From NCBI RefSeq assembly GCF_000010625.1, contig NC_010296.1, positions 4,950,001 through 4,982,000 on the forward strand: a stretch of 32,000 nucleotides of DNA. Reading direction: 5' to 3'. Below are positions 4,096 through 30,603 of this stretch, piece after piece. Position 1 is the first letter of the stretch; every line of letters starts with the position of its first letter. Source of the stretch: Microcystis aeruginosa NIES-843 (GTDB taxonomy: Bacteria > Cyanobacteriota > Cyanobacteriia > Cyanobacteriales > Microcystaceae). The translations under genes and the position numbers were made by a program. The notes under the pieces were generated by a model, which was not told where the DNA came from, made no database searches, and saw only the letters and a list, made by a program, of their open reading frames with translations.

Positions 4096-4135
4096 GGGGT
4101 GTAGGGTGTAGGGTGTGGGGAGAAGGGAGAAACAA
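4096..4135. repeat. (GGGGTGT)n heptamer array plus GGGGAGAAGGGAGA module
   Basis: ggggtgtagggtgtagggtgtggggagaagggagaaac read directly. Confidence 0.9.
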
Positions 4136-4176: not shown

Positions 4177-4204
4177 GTTATCAGTTATCAGTTATCAGTT
4201 ATCA
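4177..4204. repeat. (GTTATCA)n heptamer array
   Basis: gttatcagttatcagttatcagttatca read directly. Confidence 0.9.
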
Positions 4205-4814: not shown

Positions 4815-6779
4815 TTAAAAAGGAAGGTCTTCGTCCTCCTCCAAACTATCTAAAATTTCGTTAACATCAGGTCTCCCGCGCACGATAGTCATATTTTCCA
4901 GAGACTTATTAACTTTAGTTTCTGCGGCCGAATTTTCCGGCAGTGAATAACCCATATTGACCACTTCACCATCAAAAGATTTCGCTAACTTTTGAGCGGC
5001 CGCCAAAATTTCACTAACATCGACATCTTGATCTAATGTCTCTAAAGATGAATCAAAATTTAAGATTTTTTGGGGCAGTTCTGTGCTAGGAGTTTTTGGG
5101 GTTCCCGATGCAGTGATCTTTGCTTCTTTTTTATCGATAATTGCTTCTTTGACCGGGGGAATATCCACCACGGTCATAACTTTATTTTCGGGAGTTATTG
5201 GTGGGGTTGGTGCGGTTTCCGGTGGTGGTTGTATCCTGGCTGCCGGGGATGGGGAAACTTCCGCAGCCATGGCAGCAGTGGCGGAACCTACCTGTAAATG
5301 AACTTTAATCCGGCGCCGAAAAACTGCCTCGAAAGCTGACTCAATATTAGTCAATCGTAGCCGGGCCATTTTTAATAATTGTTCCGAAGATATACTTAAA
5401 TAAGCGCTCGATTCTTCCATATTAAAAAGACTGCCGTGCTGACGCAAGAGAGTGCGAGTAGTGGGGGGTTCCATTACTTCTAAAACCCGCTGCCAAATTT
5501 GTTCATGATTGTCATCACTGGCAACAGTTTTAACCTCAGTTTTCGGCACTGCGACGCTAGTTGTCGGGGTGATAACCGCCGGTTTGATCGGTTGATTCAC
5601 CGGTGCCGGCGCTGTGATCACTTCAGTGGGCCTCTCGACGCTGGTTTGGGGACGGGAAGGCACTGCCGTGGCAACTAGAGGAATCACCTGTGCTTGTGGT
5701 AAAAGTCCCAATAGAGTGACTTCTAACCAGAGACGGGGTTGAGTGGTGTTTTTTAGTTGCGTTTCGCTGTCTTTAAGCAGTTGTTGACCGCGGAGAATTT
5801 CCTCTAAAGACCAAGTACGCGCTTCCGTACACAATTCCTGCCAAGTGGGAGCAGTGACAGCGACCATTTCTGGACGATTAGGGGCGGTTTTGGCTAAAAG
5901 TAGGTTTAAATAGAACCCTGCTAGATTTTGCAAGACGATTAAAGGTTCCTTACCGCGATTCATCAGATGGCGACATTGTTCGATAACTTGATCGGGAATA
6001 TTGCCATGAATGACTTTAAGTAGGGTTAAGAGGTCTCTTTCGGGGACTGCACCGACCAAATCCCAGACTCGCTCGGCCGTAATCGTTCCTGCGAGTAAAC
6101 TTAATTGATCGAGGAGACTTTCCGCATCCCGTAAACCACCGTTAGCGATCTGAGCCACCAAGGTTAATGCTTCTAGGTTAATATCGATCGCTTCTATTTG
6201 GGCGATTTTTTGCAGGTGTGCCACCATCGCATCGAGAGCAATACGGCGATAATCAAAGCGTTGACAACGGGAGATGATGGTAGGCAAGACACGCTGAGGA
6301 TCGGTGGTAGCAAGCACAAAAATCACTCGATCCGGCGGTTCTTCCAGAGTTTTCAGCAAAGCATTAAAGGCCGCCGTACTGAGCATATGGCATTCATCGA
6401 TGACATAGACTTTATAACGACATTGGACGGGGGCAAATTGCGATCGCTCGATAATTTCCCGAATGTTATCCACACCGGTATTACTAGCGGCATCAATTTC
6501 GATCACGTCTAAAGCGGAACCATTGGCGATCGCTTGACAGACGGAACACTTACCGCAGGGAATCGGTGTCGGATGGTCACTAGACAGACAGTTGAGGGAT
6601 TTGGCTAAAATTCGCGCCGAGGAGGTTTTCCCCGTGCCTCTGGGTCCAGTAAATAGGTATGCAGGGGCGATTCGCTCACTGATTAAGGCATTACTCAAGG
6701 TCGTGGCGATCGCTGATTGTCCCACCAAATCGGCAAAGGTTTGGGGACGATACTTATGATGTAGAGGTTCGTAGGTCAT
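4815..6779 (-). CDS. dnaX: DNA polymerase III subunit gamma/tau
   Basis: The N-terminus reads HKYRPQTFADLVGQ. It has a Walker A motif (GPRGTGKTS), a zinc module (CGKCSVCQAI), a DEAH-like motif (VIDECHML) and an SRC motif (IISRCQRF). Confidence 0.95.
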   Translation of the reverse strand: MTYEPLHHKYRPQTFADLVGQSAIATTLSNALISERIAPAYLFTGPRGTGKTSSARILAKSLNCLSSDHPTPIPCGKCSVCQAIANGSALDVIEIDAASNTGVDNIREIIERSQFAPVQCRYKVYVIDECHMLSTAAFNALLKTLEEPPDRVIFVLATTDPQRVLPTIISRCQRFDYRRIALDAMVAHLQKIAQIEAIDINLEALTLVAQIANGGLRDAESLLDQLSLLAGTITAERVWDLVGAVPERDLLTLLKVIHGNIPDQVIEQCRHLMNRGKEPLIVLQNLAGFYLNLLLAKTAPNRPEMVAVTAPTWQELCTEARTWSLEEILRGQQLLKDSETQLKNTTQPRLWLEVTLLGLLPQAQVIPLVATAVPSRPQTSVERPTEVITAPAPVNQPIKPAVITPTTSVAVPKTEVKTVASDDNHEQIWQRVLEVMEPPTTRTLLRQHGSLFNMEESSAYLSISSEQLLKMARLRLTNIESAFEAVFRRRIKVHLQVGSATAAMAAEVSPSPAARIQPPPETAPTPPITPENKVMTVVDIPPVKEAIIDKKEAKITASGTPKTPSTELPQKILNFDSSLETLDQDVDVSEILAAAQKLAKSFDGEVVNMGYSLPENSAAETKVNKSLENMTIVRGRPDVNEILDSLEEDEDLPF

Positions 6780-6929
6780 GACTGGCTGAAAACTTTTTCC
6801 CCACCCTAGAGACTACTATTATCCTATCCCGATTCTTTTTCAACACGAGAACAAGTGTATGCCTTTTTAAGCTGTTAAGTATTGAAATTGCTTGTTGAGA
6901 TCAGGCAACAGGCAAGAGGCAACATAAAA

Positions 6930-6960
6930 CCCCACACCCCACACCCCACACCCCACACCC
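6930..6960. repeat. (CCCCACA)n array; 3' exon flank of the group II intron when read on the minus strand
   Basis: ccccacaccccacaccccacaccccacaccc read directly. Confidence 0.9.
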
Positions 6961-7745
6961 GTTACAGTAGAGCAGGAAGTCGCCTTCCCACCCCCTGCTT
7001 CAAAACCGGACTTACGACTTTCGCCGTATCCGGCTCCTGAGTAACTAGGCTACTGTCATTAGTAGAATAATAATGGGAATTATTATTTCCTTGTCTATTC
7101 AACCCTCTTGGCTGTATCCCCACCAGACAAGATTGTTGGTTTTAGGGCGTATATGACCGTTGATTGTTGCTTAGACTTCCTAGTTACCCGTCCTTTGTCA
7201 GCATATCTTTGATATTACTCAAAGCCTTGGCTTTTAAGGACATCCTCTCCCTCTATTGACTTGCGGATGGTTTCCTACTGCCCCGAACGGGCAGAGTCAA
7301 TCAGGGTTACTTCGTTCCCTATAACCATTGGTTGAACCCTTAGGATGATACTGTCCACAACAGAGTAACGGGAATGCCTTACTGATAGTGGTATGAGCTA
7401 TCAGCCCCAACTCTGTTAACTTTTGTTTCGAGCCTGTCAGCCTTTTGGCTCGTGGGTGTTGACGATGGTTAATTCGTATCTTCGCCCCAGGGCTATCCAT
7501 AGGTTCTGGCTCAACGGGTTTCTGATTTAGGCTATCAGATACCGCTTTTTTTTCCTCGCTCACTACCTCAGATGTACCAAGTCTAAAGCAGCAGGAAATG
7601 CCGTCACTCTAGGCATCTAGAGGACAGGACTAAGGTTATTACTAACCCGCACCTGTAGGGTTATAAAGTTATCAAGGTACTACATTTACCAAGCGGCTAA
7701 TCCTCTAAACGTCTTACTGTCTAGTTTCTAGCCAACGAATCGCAC
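6961..7745 (-). mobile_element. ORF-less group II intron (self-splicing ribozyme / retroelement lacking an intron-encoded protein)
   Basis: Read on the minus strand. The 5' end is GTGCGATTCG (complement of 7736-7745). Domain V (complement of 7003-7036) is GAGCCGGATACGGC-GAAA-GTCGTAAGTCCGGTTT, giving a 14-bp helix, a GNRA loop, a 2-nt AG bulge and the AGC triad. Domain VI (complement of 6964-6998) is GCAGGGGGTGGGAAG-GCGA-CTTCCTGCTCT[A]CTGT, with a single bulged A 7 nt from the 3' end (...CTGTAAC). The total length of 785 nt leaves no room for an RT ORF. Confidence 0.85.
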
Positions 7746-7780
7746 CACACCCCACACCCTACACCCCACACCCCACACCC
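7746..7780. repeat. (CCCCACA)n array; 5' exon flank of the group II intron when read on the minus strand
   Basis: cacaccccacaccctacaccccacaccccacaccc. On the minus strand this is five exact GGGTGTG-type units that end at the intron 5' splice site. Confidence 0.9.
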
Positions 7781-7861
7781 ATCAGCAAATTTTATCTAGA
7801 CAGGTTTAATGCGCGATTTGCATCACGAAAATGGCAATTTAGCTAAGGCTTGTAATAAATT

Positions 7862-10141: not shown

Positions 10142-10346
10142 ATAAATCTTAAAACCTTGTTGGGTAAGACTTTTAGACCTTTTGTCAATCAAAAAGTACC
10201 GGATATGGGAGTGATCGGGGGAAAATTCAGGTACTTTTTCTCTGAAAATTAGGTAATTGGCCACCTCAAAACTGGTAAAACCCCACACCCCACACCCCAC
10301 ACCCCACACCCTGCCACCACCGAAAAACTTTTTGCCGCAAACCCTA
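10129..10346. mobile_element. MITE-like non-autonomous element, copy A (~218 bp)
   Basis: Terminal inverted repeats are TAGGGTTAGCTGAA...TTGCCGCAAACCCTA. An internal (CCCCACA)4 block is present. The element aligns end to end with 24197-24413. It carries no ORF. Its first 13 nt overlap the narB 3' end, including the stop codon. Confidence 0.7.
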
Positions 10347-12237: not shown

Positions 12238-12270
12238 CTGATAACTGATAACTGATAACTGATTAACTGA
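12238..12270 (+). repeat. (ATAACTG)n heptamer array preceded by a C-rich module
   Basis: ctgataactgataactgataactgattaactga. It is preceded by ctccctgctccccaacccc, the complement of the G-rich module. Confidence 0.9.
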
Positions 12271-14080: not shown

Positions 14081-14186
14081 CCACTTCCCCACACCCCACA
14101 CCCCACTTCCCCACACCCCACACCCTACACCCCACACCCCACACCCCACACCCTACCCCCACGAAAAACTTTTTCAGCAGACCCTA
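14081..14186. repeat. Expanded (CCCCACA)n array plus MITE right terminus (half element)
   Basis: About 11 CCCCACA-type units with CTTCCCC and CCCTACA variants. They are followed by gaaaaactttttcagcagacccta, which matches the right ends at 10346 and 24413. Confidence 0.8.
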
Positions 14187-17304: not shown

Positions 17305-17387
17305 AAACTTGACTCGATCCTGAAAAAAATCATCTATTTCAGATTTTAAACTTAATCTTGTCCCAAAGATCGTTCTAGGGAAGTAAT

Positions 17388-17510
17388 GTGGGGTGTGGGG
17401 TGTAGGGTGTGGGGTGTAGGGTGTAGGGTGTGGGGAGTTTTCTCAGTGAACTGATAACTGATAACTGATAACTGATAACTGATAACTGATAACTGATAAC
17501 TGATAACTGA
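17388..17510. repeat. Composite microsatellite: (GGGGTGT)~7 then GGGGAG linker then (ATAACTG)~9
   Basis: gtggggtgtggggtgtagggtgtggggtgtagggtgtagggtgtggggag...ctgataactg, with the ATAACTG unit repeated about nine times. Confidence 0.95.
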
Positions 17511-18983: not shown

Positions 18984-21900
18984 ATGCCAGCAGCAGTAGA
19001 AGAAAAAAGCATGGTTCCCACGGTTTTAGTGGGTATTGGTGGCACGGGTAACGAAATTTTATCGCGATTGCGTCGCTTAATCGAGGAAAGTTATGGCAGT
19101 TTGAGCAATTTTCCGATTGTCAGTTTTTTGGTGGTTGACACGGATAAGGATTATAAAATCAGTAATCCTGAAGCTGCCGGCAGTGCTTTTAAAGATAACG
19201 AGAAACACTGGTCCCGGGTGAGTGGAAAACAGGTACAGGAGATGGTATCTGACATGGATAGATATCCCTGGATTAATAGTTGGTTTCCCCCGGAATTAGA
19301 GAGAAATATTACTTCCCTGGAAGCGGGAGCGGGACAAATTCGCGCCTGTGGCCGTTTTGCTTTATTTTGTAATTATCATGAGATCCAAAGGAAATTTCTG
19401 GACGCGGTGAGACGGGTAAAAGGACAAGAAAACTTTATGCTTGATCGCTATGGAATTAAAGTTAATAATACTGCTATTAATGTCTTTACTACGGGGTCTT
19501 TAAACGGTGGTACGGGTAGCGGAATGTTAATCGATATAGGCTACTGTATCCGTAATTGGTTGCGAGGGGAAAGTAGTCCTTTGAGTACGGCAATTGTTCC
19601 CACTCCTGAAGCATTTGCGGGGATTAGTGTCGGCGATCGAGTTTTGGCTAATGGTTACGCTGCCTTGATGGAATTAAATTACTTTTCTGACTACAGAACC
19701 GAATATCATCAACAGTTTAGCAGCGGTTTAGTCGATGAAGTTGTTAGTAAATTACCCCCCTTTGATTTTACCTATTTAGTGGGGACAAAAAACGGCGAAG
19801 GTGATTTTAAACTCGGTCAAATTCGGGAAATGATCGCCCAAAATATCTTCCTAGATATGACCTCTGATTTTGCACCCCATAAGCGTTCCATTAGAGATAA
19901 TATTAAGGGTTCTTGGGCGCAAGCTGACCCTGGGGGTCGCGGTTATCCTAAGCAATTTATGAGTTTTGGGCTATCAACTATTGAAATTCCTATTGCCCAA
20001 ATTCGGGCCTCTTTATCGGAACGTTTAGCCAAAGATTTAATTAATTGGTGGCTGAATGATTCCGTGATTTTACCCGCTCAAATGTTGGACTTAGTAAGAG
20101 GTGATATCCTCAAAAGAATGCGCTTGAGCGAAGTGGAATTAATTATGGATTTATGTGCCGACAAGGATCGCTCTTTAATTGCCATAATCTCCCAATGGAC
20201 TAACGAAACTCGTCAGGAAATCAATCAAGATAATTGGCTATCCTGTACCAAACAGGGTGTTAATATTTTAGGTAATGAACAGGGAAAAATCCTGCAATTT
20301 ATTAATGATTATTTAACGCCAAGAGTCGAGGAATTTAAACGCAATCATTTACTAGAATTAAGTCCCGATGAACGGCTGCACGGCGATTACCTGAAAAAGA
20401 TTTATAGTAACCGGGATGAAATTATTCAACGGGGTAAAAAGTCCCTAGAAATGGAGTTTTATAATATCCTTGAAGATCGAAACCGTGGAGTAAAATTTGC
20501 CGAGAGTTTTATTGTTTCAGTACGACAAATCTTCACCGACATAGCAGAAAAATTCCGTCGCGATCAAGAACAGGTTTGGAGTCAAAACGAAAGTAAACGT
20601 CAACGAGAATATGATACAGCCTTAGCAGAAATTAATGATCTGAAAGATAAAATTCATATCTCGAAAAAAGATAAGATGGAAGAATATTGTGAACAAGCTT
20701 TAACGGGATTGGAAGGTCATTTAATGGCCAATATTCAACGAAAAACCAGAGGTGCAGGAGTAGAGGTTATTAATCGTTTACTGGAACATCTCAATCAATT
20801 AGAAAGCCGTTTTAATCGCTTTCGTCAGAAATTAATTCAAAGTCGCAATCTATTTAATCTCCAAGCTAATCAACAGATCGATAGTGCCGATGCTTTGTTG
20901 ATTAATGGGATTAAATTATTTGACAGACAAGAATTAAATGGTCTTTATCAAGACTTTATCGAACAATTTGCCTCCGGGATTGTCGGCAGCAAAAATGCCT
21001 ACGATACAGGTATGGATAACCTTTGTTTACCCCTCTCAGAAGAGATTTTAAAGCAATCTAGCCCCCTCTGGAAAGAAACGCGCCGCGCCGATGAAAATAT
21101 GCGTTTATTTGACATCACCGAGATTGCCGATATTCGTCAAGGAGATTTTCAACAAGTTATCCTAAATCAAGCTAATCAACTCCTACAAAATGCTCCCGCT
21201 AGTAGTCAAATTCAGCAGGAATTAGCAGCTTGTGATCGCTTGTTAAAAATTTATAACAACGATGCCGAGATTATCAATAATCTTCGCATTGCCTACCAAA
21301 AATCGCGACCCCTAATTATGCTTAATCCTGCGGTTTTGCGGGGAAAAGATGCTGGTTTTACGCCCCAATTAAATCAAAATGTTGCCCTGATTGGAGGAAG
21401 AAATACCAGTAACCCAGCAGCCCAAAAAATTATTCCGAAACTGCGGGAATTTATTGCAAACGAAGACGATATTAAACCCTTGGGAGACGTGGAAAAACAT
21501 CGTCTTGTCTTCGTGCAGGAAATTGGCGGTTTTTCCCTACGCTGTCTCGAGGGAATGAGAGAGTTGCGGCAATCCTATCAAGACTGGAAAGGAGAATTTA
21601 TTCTCGCTAAACGCGCTCAACAAATGGGTGAAAATCGCGATTTACCCATCCCCGTGCATATCCAAAAGGAACCTCCTTTCTGGGATGTTTTTCCCGAAGA
21701 TCCGAGTATTTATCAATTGGTGGTGACTGCCCGGGCTTTAAAAGTGCTTTTTCCAGAAGTCAATCGAGTCACTAATGAGAAAACAATTCGCTATGAAATT
21801 AAAACCGCAACGGGATTAAAAAAAGTCGATATCGCCACCAGTTGGGAAGATGCGGTACAGGTGTTAGAAGTAAAAGCTTGTCGCGAAGATAAGGAAAAAA

Positions 21901-22220
21901 TTCAAAGTCAGGTGACAGCTAAGTTACAGGCTGCAGCCACCCCCGAGAAAAAACAAGCTTTGTATCGGACTTTCATTGAATATTTACAACAACGTTCCGA
22001 GGAGTTGACAGGAGGAAAAGATAGTACAGAATATAAACGGGAAGATGCAATTATTTTGCAGTTAATCGATAACTATAAGTTGGATAGCGGTGGAGAAATT
22101 CCTCTTTCTTCGGTGACGGAAGTGGTTAACCCAGCTTTAATTATCTGCGGTAATTGTGGACACAAAAACCCGCCCTCGTCTAATTTTTGTTCTAAGTGTG
22201 GGGCAAAATTAGTTAAGTAG
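18984..22220 (+). CDS. Large tubulin/FtsZ-superfamily (tubulin-like) GTPase-domain protein with a helical middle region and C-terminal zinc ribbon
   Basis: VLVGIGGTGN (aa 14-23, T1 loop), GAGQIRACG (aa 115-123, compare tubulin T3 GAGNNWAKG) and GSLNGGTGSG (aa 171-180, compare the tubulin signature GGGTGSG). The C-terminal zinc ribbon is C1055-x2-C-x10-C-x2-C1072. GGAG lies about 11 nt upstream of the ATG, which sits 2 nt after the rnz stop. Confidence 0.8.
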   Translation: MPAAVEEKSMVPTVLVGIGGTGNEILSRLRRLIEESYGSLSNFPIVSFLVVDTDKDYKISNPEAAGSAFKDNEKHWSRVSGKQVQEMVSDMDRYPWINSWFPPELERNITSLEAGAGQIRACGRFALFCNYHEIQRKFLDAVRRVKGQENFMLDRYGIKVNNTAINVFTTGSLNGGTGSGMLIDIGYCIRNWLRGESSPLSTAIVPTPEAFAGISVGDRVLANGYAALMELNYFSDYRTEYHQQFSSGLVDEVVSKLPPFDFTYLVGTKNGEGDFKLGQIREMIAQNIFLDMTSDFAPHKRSIRDNIKGSWAQADPGGRGYPKQFMSFGLSTIEIPIAQIRASLSERLAKDLINWWLNDSVILPAQMLDLVRGDILKRMRLSEVELIMDLCADKDRSLIAIISQWTNETRQEINQDNWLSCTKQGVNILGNEQGKILQFINDYLTPRVEEFKRNHLLELSPDERLHGDYLKKIYSNRDEIIQRGKKSLEMEFYNILEDRNRGVKFAESFIVSVRQIFTDIAEKFRRDQEQVWSQNESKRQREYDTALAEINDLKDKIHISKKDKMEEYCEQALTGLEGHLMANIQRKTRGAGVEVINRLLEHLNQLESRFNRFRQKLIQSRNLFNLQANQQIDSADALLINGIKLFDRQELNGLYQDFIEQFASGIVGSKNAYDTGMDNLCLPLSEEILKQSSPLWKETRRADENMRLFDITEIADIRQGDFQQVILNQANQLLQNAPASSQIQQELAACDRLLKIYNNDAEIINNLRIAYQKSRPLIMLNPAVLRGKDAGFTPQLNQNVALIGGRNTSNPAAQKIIPKLREFIANEDDIKPLGDVEKHRLVFVQEIGGFSLRCLEGMRELRQSYQDWKGEFILAKRAQQMGENRDLPIPVHIQKEPPFWDVFPEDPSIYQLVVTARALKVLFPEVNRVTNEKTIRYEIKTATGLKKVDIATSWEDAVQVLEVKACREDKEKIQSQVTAKLQAAATPEKKQALYRTFIEYLQQRSEELTGGKDSTEYKREDAIILQLIDNYKLDSGGEIPLSSVTEVVNPALIICGNCGHKNPPSSNFCSKCGAKLVK

Positions 22221-24196: not shown

Positions 24197-24413
24197 TAGG
24201 GTCTGCTGAATAAATCTAAAAACCTTGTTGGATAAGACTTTTAGACTTTTTTTTCCTCAAAAAGTGCCAGCCGTTGCGGGGATCGGGGGGAAAATTCAGG
24301 TACTTTTTCCCTGAAAATTAGGTAATTGACTACCTCAAAATCGGTAAAACCCCACACCCCACACCCCACACCCCACACCCTGCCCCCAGGAAAAGCTTTT
24401 TCAGCAAACCCTA
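24197..24413. mobile_element. MITE-like non-autonomous element, copy B (~217 bp)
   Basis: TIRs are TAGGGTCTGCTGAA...TTCAGCAAACCCTA. It has the same internal order as copy A (aaaaccttgttgg.taagacttttagac ... gaaaattcaggtacttttt.cctgaaaattaggtaatt ... (CCCCACA)4). It fills the gap between orf141 and the malQ stop. Confidence 0.75.
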
Positions 24414-28737: not shown

Positions 28738-29954
28738 AACTCTTGCAAATTAATTATATGTTATAATGATGGGTTAACTAATTTTCCCCAAAAAATTAGT
28801 TAACCAGTACATTTGTCCTGAATGAAAACTTGAAGTTTAACTTTTAACTCAAAACTCTTTAGAGCTGCTTTAATTTGGTTATCAAAACCTCTTTATTTAA
28901 GCGGCACAAACTATCTCAATTATAAAAATTGAGAATAAATTCTCCTTGACTTGATTAATCTTTAGGCAACTTTTAAGAAGCTGCTATACCTATCCCTAAC
29001 TCACAGTTATAAATAGCCGCCAACAAGTTAACTCTTAAACTATATCTTCGACGACGATTCCGATATTTACAGGATAAGATTTTAAAGATTTTGAGTTTCC
29101 TATTTATAGGTTCAATGATAATCCTTTCTTTGGCTAAAGCCTTGTTATACTCTTTTTCTAACTCTGTTAATTTTCTATTTTTCGATTTCTTTTTCGGTGT
29201 ATAACTATTACTATGGTATGCAGCTATTCCCTGATAACCACTGTCTTCTATGCTGGTAGTTAAAGGATGAAAACGAACTCGACTTTTTTTAAATAAACTA
29301 AAATCATGACCTCTACCTTTCCCACAAAAGACACAGATAATTTCCTTTGTATTTTGATCAGCTACTAATTGGGATTTTAAAGTATGATAACCTCTTTTAC
29401 CCCCCAAAAAATCTTTCTGTTTCTTTTGGGGGCGTTCAATGGGAGTTTCCGTTACATCCATTACCGTTATGACCGGTATCTCTGCTTGATTGAGTAAAGC
29501 TTTTTTTCCTTTTAAACGGAAGTTTCCCGATTGTAAAAGCATTTTTTCCGTCTTATTTACAATCCGACATATAGTTGATTCTGATAGTTCCCAGCTTGTA
29601 CCAATGTGAAAATATGTTCTATATTCTCGCCAATATTCTAACGTTACTAAAACTTGTTCTTCTATAGATAGTTTAGGTTTCGGTCCCCTTTTAGATGGTG
29701 AATTAGAGTCGGCTTCAACACTTTTTACTGATTCTACCATCTTTCTATAGGTTTGTTTATACACACCGAAACGGCGTTTGAATTGTTCATCTGATAAGTT
29801 TTGATAATCCATAATTTTGCTAATAAACATAGCAAAATTATAGATGATTTCCTGACCTAAGATCACATTTTATTCTTTTTTCCACTTCAATCTAAGAATT
29901 GAGAAAAAAGCAAAACCTTATATTATACCATAAAAAAATTATGCAAGAGGTCTA
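28735..29954 (-). mobile_element. IS5-superfamily-like insertion sequence (~1.22 kb)
   Basis: The imperfect terminal inverted repeats are TAGAACTCTTGCAAATTAATTATATGTTATAAT (left) and the complement of ATTATACCATAAAAAAATTATGCAAGAGGTCTA (right). The element has a single transposase ORF. TA or TAG occurs at both junctions, so the exact ends are uncertain by 1-3 nt. Confidence 0.75.
28973..29812 (-). CDS. DDE transposase (IS5-family-like, HTH plus DDE domain)
   Basis: An N-terminal HTH region (LSIEEQVLVTLEYWREYRTYFHIGTSWELSESTICRIV) precedes the DDE core (VMDVTE..., DSGYQG, ...ERIIIEPINRKLKIFKILSCKYRNRRRRYSLRVNLLAAIYNCEL). I prefer the ATG at complement of 29810-29812 (MDYQNLSDEQ) to the track GTG start. 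Confidence 0.85.
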   Translation of the reverse strand: MDYQNLSDEQFKRRFGVYKQTYRKMVESVKSVEADSNSPSKRGPKPKLSIEEQVLVTLEYWREYRTYFHIGTSWELSESTICRIVNKTEKMLLQSGNFRLKGKKALLNQAEIPVITVMDVTETPIERPQKKQKDFLGGKRGYHTLKSQLVADQNTKEIICVFCGKGRGHDFSLFKKSRVRFHPLTTSIEDSGYQGIAAYHSNSYTPKKKSKNRKLTELEKEYNKALAKERIIIEPINRKLKIFKILSCKYRNRRRRYSLRVNLLAAIYNCELGIGIAAS

Positions 29955-29991: not shown

Positions 29992-30603
29992 TTGGCAGCA
30001 GAGAAAAAAGAGACAAGAAAACAAAAACAAACCAAAGAATCGCCTCAAGAAAATATAATATCTCTTGAAGATATTCAAATAACTCTTGATGACTTTATTA
30101 CAAAATATTCAGAATCAATAAAAAGAAATGAGACAGAAAAACAAAAAGGATTAAGAGAATCTGTTCTTGCTATTGACGCTCACGCTCAAAAAGTTTACCC
30201 AGAATTAGCCGATAAAGCTGATGCGCTATTGAGTGAACCAGTGGTTAAACCAGAATCAGAAGAAAAGTTAGGGGATTTGTGGGTGGTTAAACCAGAATCA
30301 GAAGAAAAGTTAGGGGATTTGTGGGCTGTTATTTTCGGGAGCTATAGGTCGAAGGAAATTCCAGAAAAAGACATCAAAAAACTAGAGGCAACATTAGGGA
30401 AGGAGAGCTTAGGTATTAGAGTATATCAGCGTGACGGAAAATATAGACTTGTTTCGGTGTACAGAGATCAGGCAACAGCCAGAAATGCTCTCGATAAAGC
30501 CCAAAAGGAGAGACCAAGTTCCTATCTTAGAAATTTAGAGGATTGGTGTAACCAGAAGAAGTGTACTCCCATCCCCCCTAAACGAGACGATACTAATAAT
30601 TAA
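29992..30603 (+). CDS. Charged-linker protein with a C-terminal SPOR-like domain; probably the C-terminal part of an IS-interrupted gene
   Basis: The 203 aa contain no methionine, and the track start is a TTG. The frame stays open back to the IS junction (29956). The C-terminus WAVIFGSYRSKEIPEKDIKKLEATLGKESLGIRVYQRDGKYRLVSVYRDQATARNALDKAQ fits a SPOR beta-alpha-beta-beta-alpha-beta pattern. Confidence 0.5.
   Translation: MAAEKKETRKQKQTKESPQENIISLEDIQITLDDFITKYSESIKRNETEKQKGLRESVLAIDAHAQKVYPELADKADALLSEPVVKPESEEKLGDLWVVKPESEEKLGDLWAVIFGSYRSKEIPEKDIKKLEATLGKESLGIRVYQRDGKYRLVSVYRDQATARNALDKAQKERPSSYLRNLEDWCNQKKCTPIPPKRDDTNN
30241..30324 (+). repeat. Perfect 42-bp in-frame tandem duplication (VVKPESEEKLGDLW x2)
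   Basis: 30241-30282 is identical to 30283-30324 (gtggttaaaccagaatcagaagaaaagttaggggatttgtgg). Confidence 0.95.

Follow-up and report, generated by a model that had tools for sequence, protein, structure and literature searches.

A multi-copy ORF-less group II intron of Microcystis aeruginosa in GGGTGTR heptamer arrays

Results and Discussion

An intron upstream of dnaX

The window analysed here is a 32,000-nt stretch of Microcystis aeruginosa NIES-843 (contig NC_010296.1, positions 4,950,001 to 4,982,000; coordinates below count from its first nucleotide). On its minus strand, in the spacer between a narB-like gene and dnaX, an array of GGGTGTR heptamers is interrupted by a 785-nt element. 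The original prediction, made from the sequence alone, had read this element as a group II intron without an open reading frame (ORF). We describe its ribozyme anatomy, the pairing of its guide loops with the target, the confinement of its many copies to heptamer arrays, and alleles that differ precisely by its presence. The features of the window are collected in Table 1.

Covariance-model searches and comparative folding confirmed that the sequence running from 7745 to 6961 has the make-up of a complete ORF-less group II intron. The predicted hallmarks, namely the GUGCG 5′ end, domain V (DV) and a domain VI (DVI) with a bulged A, are all present. The Rfam model RF00029 (DV-DVI) matched over its full length at 7038..6961 of the minus strand with 55.0 bits (cut-off 40, E 2.3e-8), and this was the sole Rfam match across the window. 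In a permissive scan of the region, RF01999 (D1-D4-2) reached 26.7 bits at 7599..7532, below its cut-off of 36, and a plastid D5 model also matched DV at a sub-threshold score. The Rfam alignment leaves a UA unpaired in the DVI stem, and this places the branch-point A at 6968, 7 nt before the 3′ end. The 785-nt RNA has a predicted folding energy of -259.5 kcal/mol (z = -5.1 relative to shuffled sequences). A consensus fold of domains I to III (DI-DIII), calculated with RNAalifold from the window intron and six relatives, comprises 140 pairs, and in 71 of these one or more compensatory double changes were seen; no convincing covarying position for the γ-γ′ contact was found in this alignment of seven sequences. 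Nucleotides 1-24 of the intron are identical across 19 metagenome loci, which comprise family members and relatives. Finally, the termini, GUGCG and ...AAC (last base 6961), coincide with the boundaries of the indel that separates filled from empty alleles (see below).

Guide loops and their exon targets

CAUACC and ACACCC had been proposed as exon-binding sites 1 and 2 (EBS1 and EBS2). In the window, each is paired at 6/6 positions with its intron-binding site (IBS1 and IBS2) in the 5′ exon. Since the exon is a 7-nt repeat, IBS2 (GGGUGU) and IBS1 (GGUGUG) are the same motif, one period apart. At the seven distinct 5′ junctions of the family the EBS2 pairing is 6/6 throughout, and the EBS1 pairing is 6/6 at six junctions and 5/6 at one.

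The relatives allow both assignments to be examined against other exons. In DI, the loop that aligns with EBS1 differs in each relative and is complementary to that relative's own terminal exon bases: CAAGCA/UGCUUG in L033, AUGGUA/UACCAU in L032, GCAGU/ACUGU in L023, and 6/7 positions in L019. When the loops and exons of L033, L032 and the window were cross-tabulated, the best EBS1 pairing fell on the diagonal. The EBS2 columns pair as GUCUA/UAGGC in L033, GCAUC/GAUGC in L019 and UGUCA/UGGCA in L023, with the exon partner at about -13..-9 and a 2-3-nt spacer to IBS1, as in the window; in L032, L027 and L020 this pairing is weaker or ambiguous. The homologous columns thus covary with the exons of four relatives, and on this covariation EBS1 is CAUACC and EBS2 is ACACCC, as had been proposed.

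Table 1. Positions of the intron, its targets and other features of the window
Feature	Position	Strand	Remark
ORF-less group II intron, 785 nt (DI-DVI)	6961..7745	-	RF00029, covariation, filled/empty alleles
5′ splice-site consensus GUGCG	7741..7745	-	Direct reading of sequence
EBS2, ACACCC	7454..7459	-	Pairs with exon -14..-9, GGGUGU
EBS1 stem-loop	7382..7404	-	Stem CUGAUAG/CUAUCAG, loop CUCAUACCA; covariation in relatives
EBS1, CAUACC	7395..7390	-	Pairs with exon -6..-1, GGUGUG (5 Watson-Crick, 1 G-U)
Domain IV remnant of lost intron-encoded protein reading frame (ATA CGC CCT AAA ACC ... TGA)	7099..7152	-	Alignment with relatives
DV, GAGCCGGAUACGGCGAAAGUCGUAAGUCCGGUUU	7036..7003	-	AGC triad, 2-nt bulge, GAAA loop; Rfam alignment
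DVI, 3′ end ...CUCU(A)CUGUAAC	6961..6998	-	Bulged branch-point A at 6968; Rfam alignment
5′ exon heptamer array, 5 units (GGGTGTG x2, GGGTGTA, GGGTGTG x2)	7780..7746	-	Ends exactly at 5′ junction
IBS2; IBS1	7759..7754; 7751..7746	-	Within 5′ exon array
3′ exon heptamer array, 4.6 units	6960..6929	-	Begins exactly at 3′ junction; +1 = G
Array-bearing block, ~115-140 nt without intron	6865..7789	-	Bounded by direct repeat TAAAA; absent from three strains
Unoccupied target array (example)	10280..10311	-	
Other unoccupied arrays	4097-4120(+), 14087-14162(-), 17387-17435(+), 24349-24380(-)		
dnaX, 654 aa, intein-less allele	4815..6779	-	Downstream neighbour, same strand
Sigma-70-like site TTGAAA-17-AATAGT	6843..6815	-	Consensus scan, 9/12 matches, weak alone
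TAACTGA-type arrays	1191-1223, 2136-2168, 4177-4204, 12238-12270, 17449-17510		
1078-aa tubulin-like protein	18984-22220	+	N-terminal bacterial tubulin-like domain (PF13809, E 1e-110), C-terminal zinc ribbon
37-nt unit (CCTTGATAAGGGGGGTGCCGATAGGCGGGGGGATCCG), 5.4 head-to-tail copies, 98% identity	22255-22454		Spacer after the tubulin-like gene
DDE_Tnp_4 transposase gene	28973-29866	-	
Exact 42-nt tandem duplication	30241-30325		Inside ORF 29992-30603 (weak SPOR-domain match)

Loss of the reading frame and relatives of the intron

It had been argued that 785 nt leave no room for a reverse transcriptase (RT). The longest stop-free stretch of the intron is 103 codons and encodes no RT, and domain IV (DIV, ~150 nt) holds only a decayed ORF start. 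This remnant aligns with the ORF start of the relatives, ATG TCT AAA ACG (MSKT...); the ATG has decayed to ATA, and a stop codon follows 17 codons into the remnant. Judged by this alignment, the intron is an ORF-deletion derivative that arose from an RT-encoding intron by loss of the reading frame in DIV, and we class it as such, and not as an autonomous retroelement.

A metagenome scan with the first 24 nt of the intron gave both the close copies described below and the distant relatives, which are identical in these 24 nt. The relatives encode intron-encoded proteins (IEPs) of 581-612 residues with the domains RVT_N, RVT_1, GIIM and HNH. The best solved structure for one of these IEPs was that of the Thermosynechococcus elongatus TeI4h IEP (PDB 6ME0_C, E 4e-113), which places the lineage with the chloroplast-like (CL) IIB1 introns (PMC2882425); we infer this assignment from the protein of the relatives rather than from a classification of the window RNA. 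The ORF-bearing CL introns of filamentous cyanobacteria (L033, L032 and L019, with partial matches on plasmids of the Tolypothrix/Microchaete PCC 7601 type and of Nostoc) resemble the Microcystis intron in their first 24 nt, in the covarying DI-DIII fold, in DV and DVI, and in the positions of EBS1 and EBS2. They differ from it in their length of ~2.5 kb, in their RT-X-HNH protein and in exons unrelated to the heptamers, and some of them are twintrons. Since the mean column identity over DI-DIII of the seven aligned sequences is only 64%, none of the relatives can be regarded as the direct parent.

The twintrons are L017, L019, L024 and L026, all on filamentous-cyanobacterial metagenome contigs, in which the distant relative sits within the RT frame of another group II intron, just past the region of the YADDF motif. 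Five further candidates, L001, L006, L009 and L012 (Oscillatoriales) and L010 (Pelosinus), were rejected as family members because only ~39 nt of DV are common to them and the family. A distant blastn search of a plasmid collection yielded no family copy, only matches of 47-96 nt to the relatives, on Nostocales and Crinalium plasmids. The 5′ 24-mer was not found in scans of viral contigs, which gave one unrelated RT-encoding intron with the same DV core.

Copies at other loci

Near-identical copies (98.6-100%) were found at 12-16 other loci. Full copies in metagenomes are 99.7% (L015), 98.6% (L022) and 99.1% (L051, the same locus as L015) identical to the window intron; partial copies, among them two split by insertion sequence (IS) elements, were also recovered there. 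In a genome scan with DV, nine contigs of the M. aeruginosa metagenome-assembled genome (MAG) Ma_QC_C_20070703_M131 were found to terminate within the intron, with 100% identity over its final 102-117 nt, as is characteristic of a repeat at which short-read assembly breaks off. The genes flanking the metagenome copies encode Microcystis proteins, and the DnaX of the window is 92-98% identical to Microcystis DnaX proteins.

The other copies were checked for flanking arrays, which the prediction implied, and all were found in them: the seven distinct 5′ junctions all end in GGGTGTR GGGTGTR. All 12 distinct 3′ junctions start with GG, so that the +1 base is G in 12/12; the heptamers continue beyond the intron in seven of them and not in five, and the number of units 3′ of the intron varies from 0 to >4 among loci. 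The sequence outside the arrays differs at every locus, with a unique sequence upstream of the array at each of seven loci, and the neighbouring genes are unrelated (glutathione S-transferase (GST), secF, pantothenate kinase, aminotransferase).

The sequence downstream of one copy in the M131 MAG (L004, SFCA01000100.1) holds, in frame, the 171 C-terminal codons of a class I SAM-dependent methyltransferase, beginning within its GxGxG motif. Intact methyltransferase orthologues have AGGGTGTTAGATGTA↓GG at the intron point, and read ...GCT AGG GTG TTA GAT GTA↓GGA ACC.... The target of this copy, known from the intact orthologues only, would offer a perfect IBS2 and an IBS1 of 4/6 positions. It is likely that this copy represents an off-target sense insertion into a gene, which would then need splicing for its function.

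Filled and empty alleles

The narB-like/dnaX spacer of the window was compared with that of six other Microcystis assemblies, located through their DnaX homologues. All contigs with an exactly matching DnaX end within the heptamer array, at ~123-175 nt upstream of dnaX, and are uninformative on occupancy. In M. wesenbergii FACHB-1317 (L040) the array is uninterrupted, GGGTGTG GGGTGTG GGGTGTA GGGTGTG x4 GGGTTTTAT, between the same flanks, where the window has five units, the intron, four units and GGGTTTTAT. This empty allele bears out the predicted in-phase insertion within the array. The spacer measures 357 nt in L040 and 242 nt in L039, L044 and L045, which lack the whole array-bearing block. 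The layout of the block, TTTGCTGAT (heptamers) GGGTTTTAT...CAGCTTAAAA, and its TAAAA boundaries suggest a MITE-like insertion (miniature inverted-repeat transposable element) that carried the array. In two further strains (L042, 2604-3000; L043, 2529-3000) GC-rich palindromic sequence (GGGCTTCGGCCGTGAGCTCAGCCGAAC..., with the longer insert in L043) interrupts the array in place of the intron. The heptamer arrays seem to be hotspots for nested insertions.

At a second locus, the spacer between a GST gene and a response-regulator gene measures 966 nt when filled (L015, L051) and 181 nt when empty (L049, L050, L054), so that the two states differ by exactly 785 nt. Both junctions coincide with the predicted splice sites, ...GGGGTGTG↓GGGAGATT, without target duplication; the junction ...GGGGTGTG↓GGGAGATTAAAT has unique anchors, and here the intron is flanked by GGG only, on both sides. 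An exact indel of this kind, lacking a duplication, is as retrohoming predicts, and it counts strongly against a transposon-type insertion and against the spread of a larger segment. We rejected a MITE or DNA transposon as the identity of the element itself, given the missing duplication at the GST locus and ends (GUGCG...AAC) that are not inverted repeats.

A rival reading sees in the intron a dead passenger that recombination, duplication or MITE transposition spread together with the rest of a larger repeat (array, intron and downstream element). Several 3′ flanks do have a second repeat in common, GGGTTTTACCGATTTT..AGTCA.TTACCTAATTTTCAGGGAAAAAG, the array upstream of dnaX itself lies in the TAAAA-bounded indel block, and both the failure to find an IEP (in the window or among the 120 homologues listed, see below) and the splitting of two copies by IS elements are further points in favour of this reading. 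Against it, the sequence upstream of the arrays is unique at 7/7 loci, while the number of 3′ heptamers and the downstream sequence vary from locus to locus. Moreover, at two loci the alleles differ by the intron alone, in one case by exactly 785 nt, and the empty allele keeps the array and its flanks; the guide loops also match every site. We therefore regard passive spread as very improbable.

The intron and dnaX expression

The intron lies on the dnaX strand, and its 3′ end (6961) is indeed 182 nt from the dnaX ATG (6779), as stated in the original prediction, which went on to suggest that it may be part of the dnaX leader. A functional role there, for instance splicing-dependent control of expression, would be compatible with the common strand, the short distance and the lack of a terminator-like site in between. 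The suggestion was not supported. The intron is absent from the spacer in 6/6 other assemblies, three of which lack the whole block, and is hence dispensable at the dnaX locus. The sigma-70-like site, a weak consensus match, lies downstream of the intron, between it and dnaX, in the 84 nt proximal to the ATG that are conserved in all strains compared; outside the intron, that strand has no other promoter-like site. The other copies adjoin genes unrelated to dnaX, as listed above. A leader function thus appears highly unlikely, and on these comparisons the intron was inserted upstream of dnaX incidentally and is not a conserved part of dnaX expression. The dnaX allele of the window encodes an intein-less protein of 654 aa; most Microcystis DnaX clusters are of 793-802 aa and contain an intein (PF14890/PF07591).

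A model for insertion into heptamer arrays, and its limits

The intron of the window is most probably one copy of a multi-copy family of ORF-less IIB (chloroplast-like) introns that has been mobile recently, by retrohoming into heptamer arrays with an RT supplied in trans. The guides would act as follows. In two consecutive repeats, EBS2 and EBS1 would pair with one and the same 7-nt unit, one period apart and with a 2-nt spacer, so that any array of at least two GGGTGTR units followed by G could serve as a homing site. The excised intron RNA would be bound by the RT/maturase of a related intron elsewhere in the genome, and the RNA-protein complex would reverse-splice into the G-rich strand of an array. 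The inserted RNA would then be copied into DNA, leaving no target duplication. The steps of reverse splicing and reverse transcription, the trans-acting protein and splicing in vivo are deduced from the sequence comparisons.

Target sites are abundant. The 14-mer GGGTGTGGGGTGTG (≤1 mismatch) has 24 matches in the window, with 0 expected, and the many potential homing sites that had been anticipated are present as 25 perfect unoccupied registers. The repeat had been said to occur at seven or more loci in the window alone; seven arrays are indeed found, but the two that flank the intron are one split locus, so that the loci number six. Heptamer arrays of a second family, the TAACTGA type (CTGATAA / TCAGTTA / AACTGAT), often adjoin the GGGTGTG arrays. 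Heptamer repeats of this type have been described for Microcystis and Beggiatoaceae (PMC4679880).

Several observations weigh against recent retrohoming. Occupancy is low, with one filled site in the window versus 25 intact registers, and with a single further copy among 151 registers in ~101 kb of other Microcystis loci. Among the GTDB representatives of Microcystis, only one yielded the DV of the family. IS elements interrupt two copies, one near intron nt 140 (L016, 12471-12610) and the other near nt 115 (L021, 3296-4670, the same as L029), so that some or all copies may now be inactive. No DI column in the expected region covaries with the invariant +1 G, and an EBS3 partner for it was not found. 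The IEP donor was likewise not found: the 32-kb window encodes no RT, and among the 120 best homologues of the L032 IEP none was labelled Microcystis, the labelled ones being from filamentous cyanobacteria. Seven group II RTs have been reported in M. aeruginosa NIES-843 (PMC8934634). Finally, since heptamers flank the intron as direct repeats, precise deletion, and not an ancestral empty site, might in principle lie behind the empty alleles at the dnaX locus. Given the low occupancy, the patchy distribution of DV and these gaps in the mechanism, the family may have arrived recently, may be weakly active or may have lost its activity already.

Some of these points would also be explained if the intron were a relic that still splices, once homed but now immobile in all strains, its alleles being old insertions and precise losses by slippage. 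The very low occupancy, the IS-disrupted copies and the patchy distribution among Microcystis genomes agree with this, and at array-internal sites the flanking direct repeats would ease precise deletion. Against it, the copies are 98.6-100% identical between strains and between loci, their catalytic motifs are intact, and nine or more of them reside in one MAG. At the GST locus, slippage between GGG on each side is an unlikely route of loss, yet the indel is exact. We consider a family that is immobile in all strains unlikely, and favour recent retrohoming.

Comparison with known systems

The closest parallel to the Microcystis family is found in the ORF-less intron families of Thermosynechococcus. 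The T. elongatus TeI3 families (CL/IIB1; Mohr, Ghanem and Lambowitz 2010, PMC2882425) are likewise cyanobacterial, derive from DIV deletions that left an ORF remnant, and use targets that are themselves repeated in the genome, and the IEPs of related introns are presumed or shown to act in trans. Trans-mobilisation was demonstrated by experiment in T. elongatus (PMC2882425), whereas for Microcystis it is proposed by analogy. Of the features of the TeI3 type, the Microcystis intron has the ORF remnant, near-identical copies with matching IBS, and an insertion polymorphism free of duplication. The targets of TeI3, however, are either single sites or unique-type sequences that other mobile elements carry, namely the start of an RT ORF and an IS200-family element, whereas the Microcystis target is a 7-nt tandem repeat of which EBS1 and EBS2 both read the same unit. 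The new element is the microsatellite homing site.

Other elements also make use of repeated targets. Class C (IIC) introns (PMC4424553), like the Microcystis intron, exploit a generic motif that is present many times per genome. They insert after terminator hairpins or into attC sites, guided by DNA structure and very short IBS1/3, with no EBS2 and a reduced ribozyme, in contrast to the Microcystis intron, which is of the full IIB type and would read its target through ~12 base pairs. The nested introns of Methanosarcina acetivorans, described as 'perpetual homing sites' (PMC4424553), follow the same strategy of homing into non-essential, self-renewing DNA at low cost to the host; their target is another intron, whereas the microsatellite targeted in Microcystis does not depend on the intron for its existence. 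REP (repetitive extragenic palindromic) sequences are the targets of IS elements (PMC1525189) that are likewise specialised on short intergenic repeats, but these DNA transposons recognise their target through protein and duplicate it, whereas the Microcystis intron appears to be RNA-guided and leaves no duplication.

Reviews recognise three target specificities in bacteria, namely long homing sites, terminator motifs and attC sites. Bacterial introns that lack an ORF are considered rare there (PMC4424553). In a literature search we found no description of a group II intron that targets heptamers or other short tandem repeats, nor of an ORF-less intron of Microcystis, and absence from that search is not proof. 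The mechanism itself is ordinary homing of a IIB intron by base pairing; it is the target class, a microsatellite, that is unusual and possibly undescribed. That this is the first described group II lineage to home to a microsatellite, with landing pads renewed by slippage, a cycle of gain and loss in blooms and an RT shared in trans, is a broader proposal that we make tentatively. If it is true, each GGGTGTR array of at least two units, roughly one per 5 kb in the window, would be a landing pad, and the direct repeats flanking each insertion would give a built-in route to precise loss at the DNA level.

A few proliferating families, chiefly those of Thermosynechococcus, are the main natural models for the multiplication of introns through a shared splicing and mobility protein. 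An intron with so abundant a repeat target tests one specific prediction: were the supply of targets limiting, wide spread would be expected. With only about 1 in 25-150 perfect sites filled, the limits seem to lie elsewhere, for instance in the supply of IEP, in transcription, in loss or in selection. In practice, short-read assemblies of Microcystis break at the ends of the element, ORF-based intron finders leave it unannotated, and its presence or absence offers markers between bloom strains.

Other features of the window

Apart from the heptamer arrays, tandem repetition was seen at two places in the window, a 37-nt unit in the spacer after the gene for a large tubulin-like protein, and an exact 42-nt duplication inside an ORF. 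A DDE_Tnp_4 transposase gene lies on the minus strand (Table 1).

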